Shown here: positions 3,064 through 16,706 of the stretch, in pieces
How the letters are laid out: each line of letters begins with the position of its first letter
How positions within the stretch are numbered: the stretch's first letter is position 1
From: a virus
Lineage: Duplodnaviria; Heunggongvirae; Uroviricota; Caudoviricetes
DNA: 16,706 bases
Virus record (IMG/VR): IMGVR_UViG_2548876959_000009
Reading direction: 5' to 3' (one strand)
Notes under the pieces: generated by a model
Told to the model about the DNA's origin: nothing
Databases searched by the model: none
What the model saw: the letters and a program-made list of their open reading frames with translations, nothing else
Made by a program: the position numbers and the translations under genes

Positions 3064-3952
3064 TGCGCCCACCTTCGCTGATGGTGAATGACTCACAGCG
3101 CGCCGCCTGTATGTCGCTGATGGCCATATTCTGTGTGGGTTCGGTTATCTCCACGCGTTGCACACCGTGCACATGCAGTGCGGCAGCAATGGCGGACAAC
3201 GCCACGTCCTGACCGATAAGCCCCTGTTCAGCCAGCCACTTCCTGAATGACGATTCCGCCGCGGCCAGAATAGGTTCGGATTCCGGGCCGGGATAAAAGT
3301 ACAGTTTTGCATTCAGCCGCCATGTCACGATGCTGGCGCTCTGTACCGTCAGGCGGTCGGCCACCGGGCGGGTATCCTCTGCATTCAGAACGGCGCGAAC
3401 GGTATTAAGCAACGCCTCCGTTGCTGTGCCGTCGCCTTCAGTGGACAGAATGGAAACCGTCACACAGGCCGGAGACGGGCTGATGGCCCGCGCATCACGC
3501 ACCAGACCGTTGGCGCTGCGTGCAAAATACTCGTATGCACCTGACGGGCCAGCAACACTCAGGCCGTCATACGCCCGCTGCGCCCGCAGTCTCAGCGAGG
3601 TGTCGCTCTCCATCACCGCGTCGGTGGTATCCGTTGCCGGAGTGATAACCAGGCGCTTTGTGTTCATATTGCCCGCGAGGTTGTCCAGGTCTGTCCCGGC
3701 GCTGTGGCTTAACATGCAGGCGCGTGCCCCCTCGTTAACCCGCTGGCGTAACAGCATTTCACGAAAAGACATGGTTTGAGCGATAACGTTAAGGGGTTCC
3801 GATTCCAGCTCCAGCGCGGCGGAAACGGCTTCACGCTGTTCGGCGGGATAAGCCGCAATTATCATGGCCTTTGTGTCAGCCAGAATTGCCTCAAAGTCAG
3901 GCTCCGCGATGATGGCGGGGTCCGGTAACTGTGAAAGGTCAACGGCGGGCAT
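3056..3952 (-). CDS. J: Baseplate assembly protein J (P2 gpJ-like)
   Basis: 298 aa. Conserved blocks (LESEPL, QRVNEGARA, SPSPACVTVSILS, RPVADRLTVQSA, YFYPGPESEPI, HVHGVQRVEI) are co-linear with P2 gpJ. Confidence 0.9.
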   Translation of the reverse strand: MPAVDLSQLPDPAIIAEPDFEAILADTKAMIIAAYPAEQREAVSAALELESEPLNVIAQTMSFREMLLRQRVNEGARACMLSHSAGTDLDNLAGNMNTKRLVITPATDTTDAVMESDTSLRLRAQRAYDGLSVAGPSGAYEYFARSANGLVRDARAISPSPACVTVSILSTEGDGTATEALLNTVRAVLNAEDTRPVADRLTVQSASIVTWRLNAKLYFYPGPESEPILAAAESSFRKWLAEQGLIGQDVALSAIAAALHVHGVQRVEITEPTQNMAISDIQAARCESFTISEGGRNE

Positions 3953-5999: not shown

Positions 6000-7880
6000 T
6001 TATACTGCGGGATTATTGATTTCCAGCACCAGGCTGCCGATATCGACGCCGTACGCGGCATTTTTAGTGATATCAGTTAACGTCAGCGCATTCAGCCCCA
6101 GTGTCAGACTGTCTTTTATGACCTGGAATGCCGGGCCAGCCACTCCATTCAGTTTCGGAGTAACCGTGGCACTGCCGGCGGTGAACACCAGCTCCAGCGT
6201 CTGCCAGTCGTTACTGTAATTCCCGAACTCGCCCAACTTTGTGTTTCCGGCTTTCTTGTGATGCATCAGATTCAGTTTGCCGTCTGTGGTCTGGGTGAAG
6301 AACGACATCAGGAACGGGTTACCAGTCCCGGTCATCGCCACGACGTCAGGTAACGCTACATCGGTATACAGATAAATTCCCAGACCGAACTGGTTGTTGG
6401 TCAGTGCGCCTGACAGTCGAAACTTACAGCTCAGTCTGCCACCCCGTGTCAGCAGGGAGACTGCGTCATCCACCGGATGCATCAGGGACCAAGTTTTATT
6501 GCTCTGCTTGGTAACCTTAAACACACCATCTTCCAGCGCAACACTGCCGCCGGTGATGGTCCAGCCCTGCGCAGCAGCCTCTCCGGCTGTCGGCAGCAGG
6601 GAGACTGTACGAACGGATGTGTCACCATCAGACGGCCCCGATGGAGTGTCGCCGCCGGGCGAGGGTTTGATTTCCGGTGCGGTACCGCTGATGAAGGCGC
6701 TGGTTCGACCAACTGCGTTCAGAATAGCGGTTGCCAGGCGATCCGAAATAATGCCCCTGCGCGCCCATGAACTGAAATGTGTCGGACGATTTGACGATAC
6801 CCAATTACCATTACTACGGGATTGCGCGCCGTAATAACCTGCATCAGCAATATCCGGGTCTTCTGCCGGTAAGTTGGTGGGCGTGTTGTTGCCGTTACCG
6901 TCGGTAATGAACGGCACAAAGAAAACGTTGTCGCTCTCCCTGTTTTTGTACGCGCCGTAGACGGAGTCATACTGTGTGCCGTATGTGTTTTTCCAGTAAT
7001 ACGTCGTGTCGCCACAAATCCACGGTATAACTGCAGCACTGCCGCCATGGCACTGCGCGTTAAATCCGGAAAGGTCAGTACGGAACTGCTTCAGCATGGC
7101 CGTGAACAGGTCCGGTTGCTGTGCGTAGGTGGCAGCGCTCATGTCAAATTCGCCCTGCATCCAGCACACCGCCAGCAACACATTTTTCGGGTTCTTCTGT
7201 AATGCCGCTTTGGTGCGTGCGATCAGGTCCTGATATAACGGCTTACCCGCACCCCAGCGCGCCGAATCCTGGCTGGCCCCCGTGGTCGTACTGAATGTTC
7301 CCTCCGCGCCCTGAGTGAATGCCGAACCACCACGACAGCATGGTACCAGCAGGATCCCCGCGTTATTCGGGATATACGGAAGTAGTTTTTTGGCAATATG
7401 AAGTCCCTGTCCCACACAGCCGTACTGACCTTTGCTCAGGTCCGCCTTCGGATGATTCAGCGTACTCATATCCTGCACATCATGCAGACAGTGGTCAGCC
7501 GGGATGATGTCGTTATACGTACAACCCTCTCCACCCGGGGTTACCGTACTGCGGCGCGCCAGCTGTTTAATGCGCGGATCCGGAGCATCGTAAGAATCCG
7601 GTAACGGAAGCCCTTCACCGTAAGCCATGCCGTTGGACTGCCCGGCAAGCACAACCACGTAGTACCATTCCGGCGTCTTGTTGTTTGGTAATGGCTCAGA
7701 GGGCGTCTCGGTGGCACCATCGGCCACCATGGCCTGCATGAGATACCACGGGGTGCCGGGCTCGTAAGCTACCCGTGTGTCCCCCTGAAGATGCCACCCC
7801 TTCGCAAGATATTCATTCACTTTCCGGGTCAGTTCAGCCTGTGTCATGGCTGTAATCAGTGCAAAGTTCTTACTGGTCAT
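6000..7880 (-). CDS. Prophage cargo protein: N-terminal DUF1737-like domain, SASA/SGNH-type esterase domain (GQSN motif, sialate O-acetylesterase-like), C-terminal lectin-like domain; NanS-p-like
   Basis: 626 aa. VVVLAGQSNGMAYGEG gives the GQSN serine motif of SASA (carbohydrate O-acetylesterase) domains. The ~50-aa N-terminal domain followed by a long C-terminal region resembles the prophage NanS-p esterases of EHEC lambdoid phages. Its start ATG overlaps the o-spanin stop (ATGA). No P2 counterpart exists at this position. Confidence 0.7.
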   Translation of the reverse strand: MTSKNFALITAMTQAELTRKVNEYLAKGWHLQGDTRVAYEPGTPWYLMQAMVADGATETPSEPLPNNKTPEWYYVVVLAGQSNGMAYGEGLPLPDSYDAPDPRIKQLARRSTVTPGGEGCTYNDIIPADHCLHDVQDMSTLNHPKADLSKGQYGCVGQGLHIAKKLLPYIPNNAGILLVPCCRGGSAFTQGAEGTFSTTTGASQDSARWGAGKPLYQDLIARTKAALQKNPKNVLLAVCWMQGEFDMSAATYAQQPDLFTAMLKQFRTDLSGFNAQCHGGSAAVIPWICGDTTYYWKNTYGTQYDSVYGAYKNRESDNVFFVPFITDGNGNNTPTNLPAEDPDIADAGYYGAQSRSNGNWVSSNRPTHFSSWARRGIISDRLATAILNAVGRTSAFISGTAPEIKPSPGGDTPSGPSDGDTSVRTVSLLPTAGEAAAQGWTITGGSVALEDGVFKVTKQSNKTWSLMHPVDDAVSLLTRGGRLSCKFRLSGALTNNQFGLGIYLYTDVALPDVVAMTGTGNPFLMSFFTQTTDGKLNLMHHKKAGNTKLGEFGNYSNDWQTLELVFTAGSATVTPKLNGVAGPAFQVIKDSLTLGLNALTLTDITKNAAYGVDIGSLVLEINNPAV

Positions 7881-12848: not shown

Positions 12849-14600
12849 ATGATTCAGGACGCTTTTGTGCGCCAGCGTGCGCGGCAACTTTACTGGCAGG
12901 GTTATCCGCCCGCAGAAATATCACGTCTGATGGGAATAAACCCGAACACGATTTATGCGTGGAAAAAACGCGACCAGTGGGATGAAACGCCACCCGTGCA
13001 GCGTGTCACGCAGTCCATCGATGCGCGCCTCATCCAGCTTACTGAAAAACAGAATAAAACAGGCGGTGACTTTAAGGAAATAGACCTGCTGACCCGGCAG
13101 CTTAAAAAAATGCATGATGGCCAGCCGGATGCGACGGCCACAGGAAAGAAAGGTCGGGCGAAAAAACTCAAAAATCATTTCACGCCGGAACAGATTGCCG
13201 CACTGCGGGAAAAAATCATCAGCAGGCTGGAGTGGCATCAGCGGGGCTGGTTTGACTCCCTGACCCTTTGCAGGGAAGCCGGGATACGTAACAGGATGAT
13301 CCTGAAATCCCGACAGATTGGCGCGACCTGGTATTTTGCACAGGAAGCACTGCTGATGGCGCTGCGTGACGATGTGGCGCAACCTTACCAGCGTAACCAG
13401 ATTTTTTTGTCTGCGTCGCGTCGTCAGGCGTTCCAGTTTAAAAGCATTATTCAGAAGGCCGCGGCTGAAGTTGATGTGGAGCTGAAAGGGGGCGATAAAA
13501 TCATCCTCTCCAACGGCGCAGAGCTGCATTTTCTCGGCACTTCTGCTGCGTCGGCGCAGTCCTATACGGGCAATTTTTATTTTGATGAATTTTTCTGGGT
13601 CAGTCGCTTTGCTGAACTGCGCAAGGTGGCTGGCGCTATGGCAACCCTCAGCGGATTGCGGCGCACCTACTTCTCCACGCCATCCACCGAAACGCACGAA
13701 GCATACGCCTACTGGAACGGCGACCGCTGGAACGAGAAAAAGGCCACGCATAAACGCCAGCGTTTTTCTGTGGACTGGAAAACGCTGCATAACGGGCTTA
13801 TCTGCCCTGACCGGACGTGGCGGCAAATTGTCACGCTGGAAGATGTGGTTAATCACGGCTGGAAACACACCGATATCGACGAAATTCGTGATGAAAACAC
13901 CGAAGACGAGTTCCTCAATCTCTATATGTGTGAGTTTGTCCGCGAAGGGGAATCGGCATTTAACCTGAATATCCTGATTGGCTGCGGTGTTGACGGATAC
14001 GACGACTGGAAAGACTGGAAACCTTTTGCTCCCCGCCCGATGGGGAATCGTCCGGTATGGATTGGGTATGACGCAAACGGCAGCAGTGGCAACGGCGACA
14101 GCGGCGCTGTGTCCGTGGTGGTTCCTCCGGCTGTTCCTGGTGGCCGTTTTCGAACGGTGGAGACGCGACGCGTTCAGGGGCTGGAGTTTGAAGAACAGGC
14201 CAGAGTCATTGAAGATTTCACGTATCGCTACAACGTGGAACACATCGGCATTGATGTGACGGGCGGGAACGGGGAGGCTGTTTATCAGATAGTGAAACGG
14301 TTTTTCCCTGCCGCTATTCCGTACACCTTCACGCTGTCATCAAAACGGTCGCTTGTACTGAAAATGCTGCAAATAATGCGTGCCGGGCGGTGGGAATACG
14401 ATCGCGCCGAACGCGAGCTGGTCGCGGCCTTTAACGCCGTGCGTAAGGTGAAAACACCGGGCGGCTTTATCACTTACGAAACGGACCGCGCGAGGGGGAG
14501 CAGCCACGGCGACCTTGCGTGGGCAACCATGCTTGCTGTCATTAACGAACCAATTGGCGGCGAAGGAGAAAACGAGCGTTTCACAGTTATGGAGTTCTGA
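12849..14600 (+). CDS. P: Terminase large (ATPase) subunit P (P2 gpP-like)
   Basis: 583 aa. The N-terminus RQRARQLYWQGYPPAEISRLMGINPNTIYAWK and the overall architecture match P2 gpP. Its stop overlaps the Q start. Confidence 0.9.
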   Translation: MIQDAFVRQRARQLYWQGYPPAEISRLMGINPNTIYAWKKRDQWDETPPVQRVTQSIDARLIQLTEKQNKTGGDFKEIDLLTRQLKKMHDGQPDATATGKKGRAKKLKNHFTPEQIAALREKIISRLEWHQRGWFDSLTLCREAGIRNRMILKSRQIGATWYFAQEALLMALRDDVAQPYQRNQIFLSASRRQAFQFKSIIQKAAAEVDVELKGGDKIILSNGAELHFLGTSAASAQSYTGNFYFDEFFWVSRFAELRKVAGAMATLSGLRRTYFSTPSTETHEAYAYWNGDRWNEKKATHKRQRFSVDWKTLHNGLICPDRTWRQIVTLEDVVNHGWKHTDIDEIRDENTEDEFLNLYMCEFVREGESAFNLNILIGCGVDGYDDWKDWKPFAPRPMGNRPVWIGYDANGSSGNGDSGAVSVVVPPAVPGGRFRTVETRRVQGLEFEEQARVIEDFTYRYNVEHIGIDVTGGNGEAVYQIVKRFFPAAIPYTFTLSSKRSLVLKMLQIMRAGRWEYDRAERELVAAFNAVRKVKTPGGFITYETDRARGSSHGDLAWATMLAVINEPIGGEGENERFTVMEF

Positions 14601-15646
14601 TGAGCAGAAAAAATAAAAAAGTGCGCATGAGTTCACGCATTGATCTCGCTGATGCGCTCAGGAAAGAATCGTCGCTCAGTGCATTCACTTTTGATGGTCC
14701 TTATCGCCTGACCGGGCATGATTTGCTGGACAATATGTACTGTGCTGATAACGGGCGGTGGTATGAAACCCCGGTGGACTGGTACGGTCTGGCAAGAGCC
14801 GCCCGGCAAACGTCCTGGCATCAGTCTGCGCTTTACTTTAAGCGCAACGTATTGCTCGGGTGCTACATCCCGCACCCGCTGCTTTCCCGGCAGGATTTCT
14901 CGGCGCTGGCGCTGGACTGGTTTGTGTTCGGTAACGCATTCCTTGAGCTTCGAAGCAATATGTTCGGCGAACCGCTTAAATTACGGCACGCCCTGGCGAA
15001 ATACATGCGACGCGGAAGCGATCTTGAATCATGGTGGTATGTGCAGGATGGCAAGGATGCGTTTCAGTTTCGCCCTGGCAAAGTGTGCCACCTGATGAAT
15101 CCGGACATTAACCAGGAAATTTACGGCATGCCGGAATATCTTGGCGCATTACTCTCGGCCAGCCTGTCTCATTCGGCGGACATGTTCAGAAAACTGTATT
15201 ACGACAATGGATCCCACGCCGGGTGCATCATCTACATCGGTGCAGCGCAGGTAAACCGCGAAAGCATGGACTCCCTGAAAGAAACGTTACAGGGTGCGCG
15301 TGGTGGTGGCGCGTTTAAAAACGTGCTCATCCATGCGCCCAACGGGGGCAAAGAGGGGGTGCAAATTTTGCCGTTCCAGCAGATCACCGCAAAGGATGAG
15401 TTCATGAATGTTAAGGCGGCATCCCGTGATGATGTGCTGGCTGCGCACCGCGTTCCGCCGCAACTGATGGGGGCGATGCCGGGCGAAAAAAGTGCGTTTG
15501 GTGATGTGGAGAAGGCCGCGCGGGTTTACGCAATTAACGAGCTGATGCCCGTCATGGAGGCCATGAAGCACATCAATGACTGGCTTGGCGAAGAGGTGAT
15601 CCGCTTTAACCCTTACGCACTGTTAGACACCCAACCCACATCCTGA
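14600..15646 (+). CDS. Q: Portal protein Q (P2 gpQ-like)
   Basis: 348 aa at the P2 gpQ position immediately downstream of P, with the same length class. Confidence 0.9.
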   Translation: MSRKNKKVRMSSRIDLADALRKESSLSAFTFDGPYRLTGHDLLDNMYCADNGRWYETPVDWYGLARAARQTSWHQSALYFKRNVLLGCYIPHPLLSRQDFSALALDWFVFGNAFLELRSNMFGEPLKLRHALAKYMRRGSDLESWWYVQDGKDAFQFRPGKVCHLMNPDINQEIYGMPEYLGALLSASLSHSADMFRKLYYDNGSHAGCIIYIGAAQVNRESMDSLKETLQGARGGGAFKNVLIHAPNGGKEGVQILPFQQITAKDEFMNVKAASRDDVLAAHRVPPQLMGAMPGEKSAFGDVEKAARVYAINELMPVMEAMKHINDWLGEEVIRFNPYALLDTQPTS

Positions 15647-15939
15647 CGCGCTTCGCTTGTCTGCTGCTTCGCTGGGGCATAAAAAATTTATGCCCCGACT
15701 CTCCAGCTCCTGTATCAATCAGATAATTTCACGACGCTTTCCTGCTTATTGCCATCATCGACAGTCAGACTCTTACGCAATCCCACCGCGTTGATTGCAT
15801 GTTCTCGCCGTCTCAGTGCGATTTTGACGGCCTTACCTTTCACCTCATCAAATCAAAAGCCCTCACGTCTTTTTCACGCTCAGCGTGAGAAATACAGCCA
15901 TTCTGTTGTGTCGCTGCGACATCGTTCAGGGGATGCTAT

Positions 15940-15980
15940 TTACCCCCTGAAACGCGGGCTGTTCCCCCGTCACCTGCGCG
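15940..15980. other. Candidate cos (cohesive-end) site of the prophage
   Basis: The reverse complement of GGGCTGTTCCCCCGTCACC resembles the G-rich 19-nt cohesive end of P2/186 as I recall it (GGCGAGGCGGGGAAAGCAC type). The location downstream of the portal gene is as in P2. This is a memory-based comparison, not an alignment. Confidence 0.2.
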
Positions 15981-16000
15981 CAGAAAAAGCGCGTTTTTTT
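15976..16000 (+). terminator. Intrinsic terminator for the P-Q late operon
   Basis: GC stem CGCGC (15977-15981) pairs with GCGCG (15989-15993), loop AGAAAAA, followed by seven T at 15994-16000. Confidence 0.6.
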
Positions 16001-16070
16001 GTGCACGCACGGATCCTTGACGGATCCAGCCGCCATACGGGCCGGAAGGGTAAAAAGTCGTTCAAAAAAA

Positions 16071-16100
16071 TTGTGCAAATTTGTGCACTTTTGTGCAAAC
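16071..16100 (+). repeat. Three phased 10-bp direct repeats: TTGTGCAAAT, TTGTGCACTT, TTGTGCAAAC
   Basis: Read directly from the sequence; helical-period spacing next to the terminator hairpin, in the non-coding post-portal region. Confidence 0.5.
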
Positions 16101-16102
16101 AA

Positions 16103-16123
16103 AAAGCGCCCCTGAGGCGCTTT
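16103..16123 (-). terminator. Hairpin terminator (possibly bidirectional) ending the convergent minus-strand small operon
   Basis: AAAGCGCC-CCTGA-GGCGCTTT: an 8-bp stem with 5-nt loop, with a T-rich run after it on the minus-strand transcript and TTTAGTGTTTT on the plus strand. Lies 35 nt downstream of the 87-aa ORF stop. Confidence 0.5.
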
Positions 16124-16157
16124 AGTGTTTTATAGGTTGTGTATATTTGCTGGGTCC

Positions 16158-16421
16158 TTATCCTGCTGTGCTTTCAACTGATGAGGGGAACAAAATCTTT
16201 TCATCAAACCCTGCATTCATATCATGGACAGCAACACACCAATCCATTGACGAACGATTATCAAGAGCCTCCATGATTTCATCCATGCGGCGTAGGTCAT
16301 ACAGGTAAATGCTTTTATCGCCAATGGTGTAAAAACCAATTTTTTTCGGTGATGGACAGCGATCAAGAACGTCCTGTAATTCGCTCAACCATGCTTGTTC
16401 TTTTTTTGTCAAAGTTGCCAT
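16158..16421 (-). CDS. Hypothetical small protein (87 aa), last gene of a convergent operon in the post-portal variable region
   Basis: Strong RBS AAAGGAGAG 4 nt before ATG (MATLTKKEQAWLSEL...). Acidic, no predicted transmembrane segment, no recognisable motif. The ORF track's longer version starts at an upstream TTG (16442). Confidence 0.5.
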   Translation of the reverse strand: MATLTKKEQAWLSELQDVLDRCPSPKKIGFYTIGDKSIYLYDLRRMDEIMEALDNRSSMDWCVAVHDMNAGFDEKILFPSSVESTAG

Positions 16422-16422
16422 A

Positions 16423-16599
16423 TCACTCTCCTTTGATGCCAATGTCTACAGCTTGGCAAGCCTCTTTGGTCACCCAGTCAATAGCGTCTTTCCATACTCC
16501 AGTTTCGACTGGCGGATTCTCACGCTTTACCTGTTCATAGAAACGCACCGCTCTAACCAGTCCATCTGGTACTGCTGGCGCTGGCGGCTCTCGATACAT
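16423..16599 (-). CDS. Hypothetical small ORF (58 aa) translationally coupled to the downstream 87-aa ORF
   Basis: ATG at 16599; stop TGA sits 1 nt before the next ATG (TGAtATG). Weak RBS, below the ORF-track size cut-off, no recognisable motif; its coding status is uncertain. Confidence 0.3.
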   Translation of the reverse strand: MYREPPAPAVPDGLVRAVRFYEQVKRENPPVETGVWKDAIDWVTKEACQAVDIGIKGE

Positions 16600-16706
16600 A
16601 GGGATAACACGTCGCAGGTCCGCGTATTTATCTGGCGGACACTGATATATCGTAAGCGTGCAGCAAGAACCGTATTGACGGGGATGTGTTATTCAGTCGG
16701 CAGTGC

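Follow-up and report, generated by a model that had tools for sequence, protein, structure and literature searches.

The right end of the window, by which we mean the whole 16,706-nt stretch of DNA that was analyzed, taken as a whole is very probably the variable slot next to cos in a P88-like (Xuanwuvirus) prophage of the P2 family, in which a terminator is followed by an intact gene of 87 codons (orf87), a gene of 143 codons (orf143) cut by an insertion sequence (IS), and the end of that IS. We demonstrate the anatomy of this region, the disruption by the IS, the coding status of orf87 and the selection acting on it, the variety of its neighbors in other phages, and the lack of a match to any known defense model. 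The layout at this locus is an ordinary one that has already been catalogued, and a hidden defense system is not indicated. The region had been placed in a variable locus of P2 in an earlier note on this DNA, and it corresponds indeed to the cos-proximal slot between the portal gene gpQ and the replication gene A (Rousset 2022, PMC9122126). The locus is a well-described P2 hotspot with one of its most common non-defense layouts, i.e. partition genes and two small hypothetical genes, here damaged by an IS. A literature search by accession gave no match.

The portal gene gpQ (14600..15646, plus strand, 348 aa) is the final gene of the P-Q packaging operon in the open reading frame (ORF) list, and the prophage of E. 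coli 55989, which is 100% identical, has it annotated as 'phage portal protein'. As previously noted, it is followed by about 0.5 kb of structured non-coding DNA (15647-16157); no credible gene was found there, the longest ORF having 5- and 7-nt indels in related phages, and an Rfam search of this interval identified no family, with a single sub-threshold chance match. A hairpin with a perfect 10-bp stem and a 3-nt loop (GGGGCATAAA-AAA-TTTATGCCCC; 15674..15696, plus strand) starts 28 nt past the gpQ stop codon at a relative place equivalent to that where the tQ terminator is annotated in P2. This tQ-like hairpin has no T-run after the stem, folds with -16.0 kcal/mol (z = -3.5), and does not differ among the six P88-like phages of the alignment.

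Further to the right, a core (15968..16097) that was nearly invariant in a six-phage alignment of P88-like (Xuanwuvirus) phages probably contains the cos site. In P2, cos is located between Q and old, i.e. at the same position as this putative cos core, which is also conserved within its lineage; the 19-nt cohesive-end sequence of P2 had no match in the window when up to 3 mismatches were allowed. The core contains two copies of ACGGATCC (16010-16028) and three TTGTGCA repeats with a 10-bp spacing (16071-16097; tandem repeat, period 10), and the ends of the linear P88_4B11 record, a single database record, meet at 16052/16053. The TTGTGCA repeats were considered as candidates for parC or for a terminase-binding site, and the two roles are inseparable because every repeat-bearing phage examined also has parMR.

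The homology among P88-like phages breaks in the alignment at 16097/16098, where the variable cargo starts (16098..16157), and the megablast matches of other P88-like phages stop at query positions 451-476 (query from 15647). A terminator scan and folding identified at this edge a Rho-independent terminator of the minus-strand operon (AAAGCGCCTCAGGGGCGCTTT then TTGTTTG; 16103..16123, minus strand), which has 9 pairs, lies 34 nt beyond the orf87 stop codon, and folds with -16.3 kcal/mol (z = -4.04), a stability that was reached by 0 of 200 shuffled sequences. Terminator-like sites numbered 5 in the region versus 1.1 ± 1.1 in shuffles. The previous proposal that the operon ends at a hairpin terminator was confirmed by the hairpin and T-run at 16123-16103 on the minus strand, as was the convergence of the minus-strand genes, which close at this terminator, with the portal operon. 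The terminator hairpin is symmetric, so that it was scored on the plus strand too. To the right of the portal gene, the tQ-like hairpin is thus followed by the conserved cos region, by the cargo boundary at 16097/16098, and by the terminator of what is very probably a leftward early (replication) operon.

The orf87 gene (16158..16421, minus strand) encodes an intact, acidic protein of 87 aa (pI 4.67; WP_000224220.1). In agreement with the strong ribosome binding site and TGAtATG junction that had been described for it, the start codon is located 6 nt after AAGGAG, across TGAtATG. A profile search against PHROGs assigned the protein to phrog_1714, a family of 'unknown function' (E = 1e-50), and no match was found in Pfam, NCBIfam, or PADLOC. 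Length and motifs were conserved in 143 close homologues, and a profile search of 1.84 billion representatives retrieved 196 clusters at 50% identity, nearly all of them stand-alone proteins of 80-90 aa; informative fusions were not found, and ten longer members of the family lacked a Pfam domain. The dN/dS values were 0.04-0.14, and the substitutions with respect to a P22-like copy were 10 synonymous and 2 non-synonymous. The GC content of orf87 is 41% versus 54.6% for the window. Its AlphaFold2 (AF2) model had a pLDDT of 89, and no relative of the predicted fold was found in the Protein Data Bank (PDB), nor any relative of known function by fold or sequence. The dN/dS values, the strong Shine-Dalgarno sequence, the hairpin terminator, the invariant motifs, the fixed length, and the confident AF2 model indicate that orf87 is a real gene.

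The second ORF of the supposed pair, with 58 aa (16423-16599, minus strand), turned out not to be a gene. Its ATG is the internal Met86 codon of the 143-codon orf143, which is intact in E. coli 55989 (L001:9777-10208), no Shine-Dalgarno sequence precedes this ATG, and the frame remains open upstream up to the IS junction. The window contains the 3' remnant of orf143 (16423..16651, minus strand; WP_000201254.1, phrog_660), comprising codons 69-143, the stop codon, and 1 nt of codon 68, as defined by the junction alignment and by 100% identity to E. coli 55989. Therefore, what had been regarded as a two-gene operon is one intact gene, orf87, and one recently disrupted gene, orf143. The latter matched phrog_660 in PHROGs, also a family of 'unknown function', and no Pfam family at E <= 1 and none in NCBIfam or PADLOC. 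Its structure model was of low confidence (pLDDT 67.6) and showed two helical hairpins with a disordered middle; a PDB sequence search gave no match, and the best PDB structure match, the phage anti-activator Aqs1 (E = 0.68), was taken as a trivial helical-hairpin match.

The window is 100% identical to E. coli 55989 over 15647-16651, and then identity breaks, the junction alignment showing a switch to the IS end at 16651/16652. The last 55 nt (16652..16706, minus strand) correspond to the right end of an IS66-family (ISEc22-like) element according to genome matches and the junction alignment, with a terminal repeat that begins GTAAGCGTGCAG at 16652 and the 3' end and stop codon of tnpC at 16689-16706. 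This assignment is supported by the start of the terminal repeat (GTAAGCG), by the position of tnpC adjoining the end of the element, and by the C-terminus of tnpC (ALPTE*), identical to that of TnpC of pETEC_73; moreover, this IS end is present in 2103 E. coli genomes, where its annotation is IS66-like ISEc22 family transposase. The reference IS66 copy in pETEC_73 has a tnpA-tnpB-tnpC layout, whereas only 55 nt of the element are present within the window, its second end and the expected 8-bp target duplication falling beyond the right edge. An upstream gene had been suggested to end near 16690, and there is indeed a gene on the minus strand whose end lies at 16689-16691, but it is the tnpC gene of an IS66-family element. 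The 8 bp that abut the junction (16644-16651) are GATATATC. The junction itself was not found in the genome contigs searched, and among complete E. coli genomes no match to the query extended past position 1005. The element would have inserted into codon 68 of orf143, leaving a 75-codon stump with tnpC directly upstream in the same orientation, and orf143 would now be a pseudogene; instead of a simple insertion, an IS-mediated deletion or rearrangement may account for the junction.

The intact locus of E. coli 55989 encodes, in order, the portal protein, the 87-aa and 143-aa proteins, a Plasmid_stab_B protein, ParM, and a replication endonuclease. The set WP_000686557 + WP_000211293 + WP_000201254 + WP_000224220 is listed as one arrangement in Table S5 of Rousset 2022, and a partition system is present at the hotspot in about one-quarter of P2-like phages according to that paper (PMC9122126). 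As expected for a member of this hotspot, gpQ is present in the window, gpA lies beyond parMR at the locus of 55989, 100% identical to this one, and the flanks are conserved while the slot genes differ in P88_4B11, 569R5, Chuche, and PhiR44_2; parMR belongs to the backbone of the lineage, as seen in each of the five further P88-like phages that were examined. The order of the operon in the intact phage would be gpA, parM, parR, orf143, orf87, terminator, and cos, with orf143 and orf87 as the final two genes of the leftward early operon. In the 55989 locus, the four genes are separated by 1-19 nt, and a scan for consensus promoters on the minus strand, a crude consensus search, found none from gpA to the terminator. 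Terminator-like matches on that strand in this interval were limited to two weak 5-pair stems inside parM, which were discounted. It would be consistent with this arrangement that orf143 and orf87 are transcribed with the early operon and are silent in the lysogen, and an internal promoter, e.g. a ParR-regulated one upstream of parM, may exist. In the IS-carrying prophage, transcription of orf87 may persist by read-through from tnpC. The partition genes themselves resemble the R1 ParMRC system and AlpAC, an actin-like system of the prophage CGP3 (PMC4446434), in that the replication gene of the intact relatives adjoins genes for a full-length ParM (PF06406 + PF21523) and for a ParR-like protein with Plasmid_stab_B. 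Nevertheless, the par genes lie outside the window, orf87 and orf143 are not members of the ParMRC module, and no R1-type parC iteron centromere was found upstream of parM.

The Shine-Dalgarno sequence of orf87 (AAGGAG; 16428..16433, minus strand) lies within the final K-G-E codons of the upstream gene and is part of a conserved joint, ATCAAAGGAGAGTGAtATG. This joint has the form …AAAGGAGAG TGA n ATG, and it was found also in lambda ea22 and in other phages; at 115 of the 127 joint sites in viral contigs the start codon is located 1 nt past the stop codon, and the joint precedes at least 19 unrelated downstream genes. It would stitch shuffled genes to their neighbors by giving a Shine-Dalgarno sequence to whichever gene comes next. 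A C-terminal K/R-G-E motif has been described in Ea22 proteins (PMC7093339), and this tripeptide of Ead/Ea22-like proteins is present at the C-terminus of orf143 (IKGE). The K-G-E tail is attributable to the Shine-Dalgarno joint and is, therefore, a weak sign of Ea22 membership. Assignment of orf143 to the 'Ea22-like' family was rejected, as the protein had no match to PF13935 (Ead_Ea22), a model matched by lambda Ea22 and by a VSe13 protein, and BLASTP against lambda Ea22 gave E = 1.5. The coincidence of the '+GE' tail of Ea22 with a joint that is reused by many unrelated gene pairs provides a simple explanation both for the motif and for the points of mosaic exchange.

The neighbors of orf87 differ among phage groups. 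At least six different upstream neighbors were observed, including gpA, an 80-aa ORF, Ead_Ea22, a Mom-like gene, and orf143. The orf87 gene lies directly after gpA in Pectobacterium P2-like prophages and follows a Mom-like gene in PhiR44_2 and an Ead_Ea22 gene (Pfam match) in VSe13; it lies 0.5 kb downstream of an ead/Ea22-like gene in the ea region of ST64T, in the exo-xis region of an Edwardsiella lambdoid phage, and among small early genes in the Chivirus BSPM4. Its place in the lambdoid, P22-like, and Chi-like phages, as well as in further P2-like ones, was always amid early accessory genes. Because the neighbors differ across phage groups, orf87 is independent of orf143 and is neither a toxin-antitoxin (TA) partner nor part of a larger system. 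Copies of orf87 with 95-98% protein identity are found in the early accessory regions of phages of the lambdoid and P22-like types (the exo-xis region of lambda with ea22, the ea region of P22/ST64T, and the nin region), and orf143 shares with Ea22 proteins a modular build, the K-G-E end, and the joint that links the genes, although it neither matches the Ead_Ea22 Pfam model nor shows similarity to lambda Ea22. The lambdoid accessory genes belong to the pL operon, whereas those studied here are attached to a P2-type replication operon. The two genes, orf87 and orf143, are very probably independent, horizontally shuffled accessory genes of a mosaic early operon, similar to those that occupy exo-xis in lambda, ea in P22, and the nin region.

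The earlier note had regarded the two small ORFs as a TA-like or accessory pair of a larger defense or cargo system to the right of the window. The known gpA-gpQ hotspot, the tight coupling of the genes by TGAtATG, and the lack of Pfam domains in both would fit such a proposal, but it now appears highly improbable. One of the two genes is an IS-cut fragment of a 143-codon gene, the coupling joint is a generic one found before at least 19 unrelated genes, and many different genes, including gpA, lie upstream of orf87 elsewhere. Two small adjacent genes with overlapping signals do resemble type II TA pairs, but conserved pairing is absent and neither gene has a type II toxin or antitoxin domain in Pfam or NCBIfam, orf87 also lacking a PDB fold relative. 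The check with a defense predictor gave 0 PADLOC families at E <= 1 for orf87, orf143, the ParR-like protein, and ParM, and the view of the region as the edge of a larger cargo system is close to refuted, since the intact 55989 locus has only the backbone genes parR, parM, and gpA beyond these ORFs, and an IS lies to the right in the present DNA. A role of orf143 and orf87 as accessories to the neighboring ParM/ParR partition module is equally hard to credit: both lie directly downstream of parR in one co-directional string, an arrangement that is the same in Rousset's table, but ParMR is missing where orf87 is found in lambdoid, P22-like, and Chi-like phages and in the P2-like ones of Pectobacterium, and other P88-like phages retain parMR with quite different slot genes.

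The slot is the same as that of old/tin in P2, with the portal gene and cos on one side, the replication gene on the other, conserved flanks, and variable content, which together with the low GC content and moron-like composition raises the possibility that orf87, alone or together with orf143, is expressed from the prophage as an exclusion or defense gene and protects the lysogen from other phages. We consider this improbable. P2 old/tin have their own promoter and point away from cos, opposite to gene A, whereas orf143 and orf87 are co-directional with gpA and continue its operon with gaps of 1-19 nt and no promoter-like site; unlike P2 old/tin, the slot holds no recognizable defense protein, PADLOC giving no match, and only about 0.7 kb of cargo, interrupted by an IS. 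Homologues of orf87 are also present in Chi-like phages, which are virulent, so that the defense of a lysogen gives them no benefit. Somewhat less remote, but still unlikely, is a role of orf87 and orf143 as modulators of lysis and lysogeny of the lambda exo-xis type. The location of orf87 in exo-xis or ea regions near Ead/Ea22 genes, the K-G-E tail of orf143, the presence of PF13935 or DUF551 modules in some orf143 relatives, and the fact that exo-xis genes influence the developmental decision, with Ea22 favoring lysogeny (PMC7093339, PMC3824215), would agree with it. However, orf143 itself has no match to PF13935 and no similarity to lambda Ea22, its tail is explained by the joint rather than by a common function, and orf87 is found also in Chi-like and large phages without a nearby lysogeny module.

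Within the reading of the region as a variable slot with mosaic accessory genes, the context, charge, and composition of orf87 suggest, tentatively, that its product is small, acidic, and made early, and that it acts in host takeover or anti-defense on a factor of the host or of a competitor. More speculatively, phrog_1714 could be a previously unrecognized host-takeover or anti-defense effector with a new small alpha/beta fold, exchanged as a module among temperate (P2-like, lambdoid, P22-like) and virulent (Chi-like, larger) phages and acting via an invariant RCPSPxKxGFYTIGD / LYDxR surface and a conserved C-terminal FPSxVESTAG tail, a combination that we regard as rather doubtful. With its strong conservation and a confident fold that has no solved relative, orf87 is a sensible choice for accessory-gene screens, although not one that stands out, and its family occurs in several lineages of phages and, among complete E. 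coli genomes, in approximately 18%.

The 58-aa ORF (16423-16599, minus strand) that the earlier note had taken for a gene proved to be the stump of a longer one. In a megablast comparison with complete E. coli genomes, the sequence from 15647 to 16651 was 100% identical to that of E. coli 55989 and others, and no record matched past query position 1005. In the 55989 prophage (L001, the intact reference locus), the frame ending at 16423 is a 143-codon gene, WP_000201254.1 (L001:9777-10208; orf143), and the ATG of the 58-aa ORF is its internal Met86, with no Shine-Dalgarno sequence before it (the sequence upstream is CGTGTTATCCCT). A three-way alignment showed that the window tracks 55989 to ...CACTGATATATC and then changes to GTAAGCGTGCAGCAAG..., where an IS66-family element has its end; this 55-nt end is found in about 2100 E. 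coli genomes with the annotation 'IS66-like element ISEc22 family transposase'. The reference copy in pETEC_73 has the order tnpA-tnpB-tnpC, and its tnpC stops 37 nt short of the element end. Because the last six minus-strand codons of the window, ALPTE*, are the same as those of pETEC_73 TnpC, the upstream gene reported to end around 16690 is tnpC; a minus-strand gene does end there, and it belongs to the insertion sequence. The element entered orf143 at codon 68, and codons 69-143 are retained (16423-16651). The insertion appears to be recent, since no difference from intact alleles has yet arisen in the stump (100% identity), and it may represent either a simple insertion or a rearrangement, the left end of the element lying beyond the window. 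The junction with orf143 had no match in one-genome-per-species contigs.

The intact 55989 locus is a co-directional string of gpA (replication endonuclease), ParM (PF06406 and PF21523), a ParR-like Plasmid_stab_B protein, orf143, orf87, a terminator and cos, with 1-19 nt between the four genes downstream of gpA. A crude consensus scan gave no promoter on the gpA-to-terminator strand, and the only minus-strand terminator-like hits ahead of the final terminator were two 5-pair stems inside parM, discounted as weak. On the simplest reading, orf143 and orf87 would be co-transcribed with the early replication operon. The 76-nt gap between gpA and parM (L001 11507-11582) holds only a short inverted repeat (GGATTTCAGAATCC) and none of the R1-type iterons that would mark the centromere of the phage partition module.

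The identification of a P2 variable locus was correct, as this is the gpA-gpQ hotspot defined by Rousset et al. 2022, where about one-quarter of P2-like phages have a putative partition system (PMC9122126). It is not the edge of a larger cargo system, as had been proposed, because beyond orf143 and orf87 the intact locus has only parR, parM and gpA. In all five other P88-like phages examined parMR also adjoins gpA, and the genes from parR to cos are quite different there; beside the constant parMR, this makes parR-to-cos the true variable slot of the lineage, which in the 55989 type contains orf143 and orf87 only. The suggested defence-system prediction, run with PADLOC on ParM, the ParR-like protein, orf143 and orf87, matched no model to any of the four. 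The arrangement is already catalogued, and its disruption by the insertion sequence is a trivial variant.

The 348-aa portal gene runs to 15646, and 28 nt past its stop a hairpin with a 10-bp stem (15674-15696), perfectly conserved when five P88-like (Xuanwuvirus) phages are aligned to the window, occupies the place of the annotated P2 terminator tQ. It is followed by a moderately variable stretch that we consider non-coding, because indels of 5 and 7 nt in the relatives break its 128-codon TTG ORF, which was thereby ruled out as a gene. The broken longest ORF bears out the earlier description of about 0.5 kb of non-coding DNA after the portal gene; Rfam had no family match in this stretch. 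A nearly invariant core (~15968-16097) comes next, and homology among the aligned phages ends abruptly at 16097/16098. Since both ends of the linear P88_4B11 record meet at 16052/16053, although the termini of a single record are weak evidence, and P2 has cos at the matching relative position, between Q and old, the core was taken as the putative cos region; a search allowing up to 3 mismatches gave no match to the P2 19-nt cohesive end. Right at the border of this core all the aligned phages conserve three TTGTGCA repeats with 10-bp spacing (16067-16099), and a fourth copy, TTTTGTGCA, lies at 15997-16005. The repeats may bind terminase or may serve parMR as its centromere, two roles that are inseparable because every phage bearing them also has parMR. 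Also in the invariant core, just left of the inferred terminus, ACGGATCC occurs twice, 11 bp apart, at 16008-16029 (CACGGATCCTTGACGGATCCAG). In the RefSeq record of phage 503458 the terminase, portal and replication genes are split into several CDS, and 1-nt indels are numerous when it is compared with related phages; these are probably sequencing errors, and the indels were left out of the evidence.

The description of orf87 (WP_000224220.1; 16158-16421, minus strand, 87 codons) as an intact gene with a strong ribosome-binding site and a terminator was confirmed. An AAGGAG precedes its ATG by 6 nt, the stop of the preceding frame is 1 nt away from that ATG (TGAtATG), and 34 nt past its own stop there is a terminator hairpin (16123-16103, minus strand), a 9-bp GC-rich stem followed by TTGTTTG that folds with -16.3 kcal/mol (z = -4.0; none of 200 shuffles folded as well).

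The TGAtATG coupling had been regarded as the sign of a two-gene operon. In the window, the K-G-E codons AAA GGA GAG TGA that end orf143 include the Shine-Dalgarno sequence of orf87 (joint at 16419-16445, minus strand). K/R-G-E terminates all Ea22 proteins, with unknown significance (Dydecka et al. 2020; PMC7093339), and GGCATTCGCATCAAAGGAGAGTGA also ends lambda ea22, the Ead/Ea22 gene of VSe13 and the unrelated Mom-like gene of PhiR44_2. When viral contigs were scanned for GCATCAAAGGAGAGTGA, at least 127 sites were obtained, and among the sites listed the start codon was exactly 1 nt past the stop in 115 of 127. The proteins upstream of the joint form at least 8 clusters and the ORFs downstream at least 19 unrelated ones, with orf87 at no fewer than 18 sites; therefore, TGAtATG with a strong ribosome-binding site marks a generic module joint and gives no sign of a dedicated two-gene system. 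Judged from these sequences, AAAGGAGAGTGAnATG seems to serve as a translation signal in common use and as a mosaic recombination linker, which could also account for the '+GE' tail of Ea22.

Alignment of orf143 relatives revealed a mosaic of modules, in the order variable helical N-terminus, conserved IALASLEAEPVAW hinge, middle, PPAP linker and C-terminal segment. The middle has at least three alternatives, the C-terminal segment (~45 residues) is conserved and ends in IKGE, and some relatives contain PF13935 or DUF551 modules. As orf143, unlike lambda Ea22, does not match PF13935 and is not similar in sequence to lambda Ea22 itself, it was not filed as Ead/Ea22. Its structure was modelled with low confidence (pLDDT 67.6). 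Among PDB entries its helical hairpin came closest to Aqs1 (6v7u), a quorum-sensing anti-activator of phage origin, with 30% identity across 44 columns; the match was insignificant (E = 0.68) and is probably a generic helical-hairpin match.

The orf87 protein aligns over its whole length with phrog_1714 ('unknown function') and has no match in Pfam or NCBIfam. Its 143 close homologues across Enterobacterales are nearly all 87 aa long, with invariant C21-P22-S23-P24-x-K26-x-G28, Y40, D41 and R43 and a conserved FPSxVESTAG tail. When its profile was run against 1.84 billion representatives, a family of 196 clusters emerged, almost all stand-alone, and ten longer members that were scanned had no Pfam domains. 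Comparison with a P22-like copy revealed 10 synonymous and 2 non-synonymous differences, and dN/dS among close copies was 0.04-0.14. Among complete E. coli genomes, 979 of 5426 carry the gene; its GC content is 41% (54.6% for the window), and the protein is acidic (pI 4.67) with a confident small alpha/beta AlphaFold model (pLDDT 89.4). The widespread family is, together with the joint, the main remaining point of interest of the locus.

In Pectobacterium P2-like prophages orf87 lies 4 nt after gpA, in an Edwardsiella lambdoid between recT/Ead_Ea22 and xis-int, and in the Salmonella P22-like phages VSe13 and ST64T within the ea region. In an E. coli lambdoid it belongs to a series of small genes, some annotated Ea22 and EaA, that separates replication gene O from antiterminator Q. 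A Mom-like gene precedes it in PhiR44_2, and in Chivirus BSPM4 (3501-3764) a homologue has small early genes around it and a DNA methylase nearby. All these contexts are co-directional runs of early accessory genes in which the upstream neighbour is never fixed, which rules out an obligate pair; the toxin-antitoxin idea is likewise unsupported, as this neighbour varies among phages. Chi-like Salmonella phages of ~59 kb, as well as phages with sizes of 77-134 kb, have homologues with 45-74% identity, so that the family is not confined to temperate phages. Chi-like phages are virulent, and this, with the contexts of orf87, makes a role in protecting lysogens unlikely. We prefer, tentatively and at somewhat less than even chances, to regard orf87 as a small acidic early protein that may act on a host or rival factor.

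Elsewhere in the window, adjoining the lysis genes in the late region, 6000-7880 (minus strand) encodes a protein of 626 aa that combines DUF1737, SASA (sialate O-acetylesterase) and DUF6645 domains, for which PADLOC had no match and whose architecture resembles that of the NanS-p esterases of Stx prophages.
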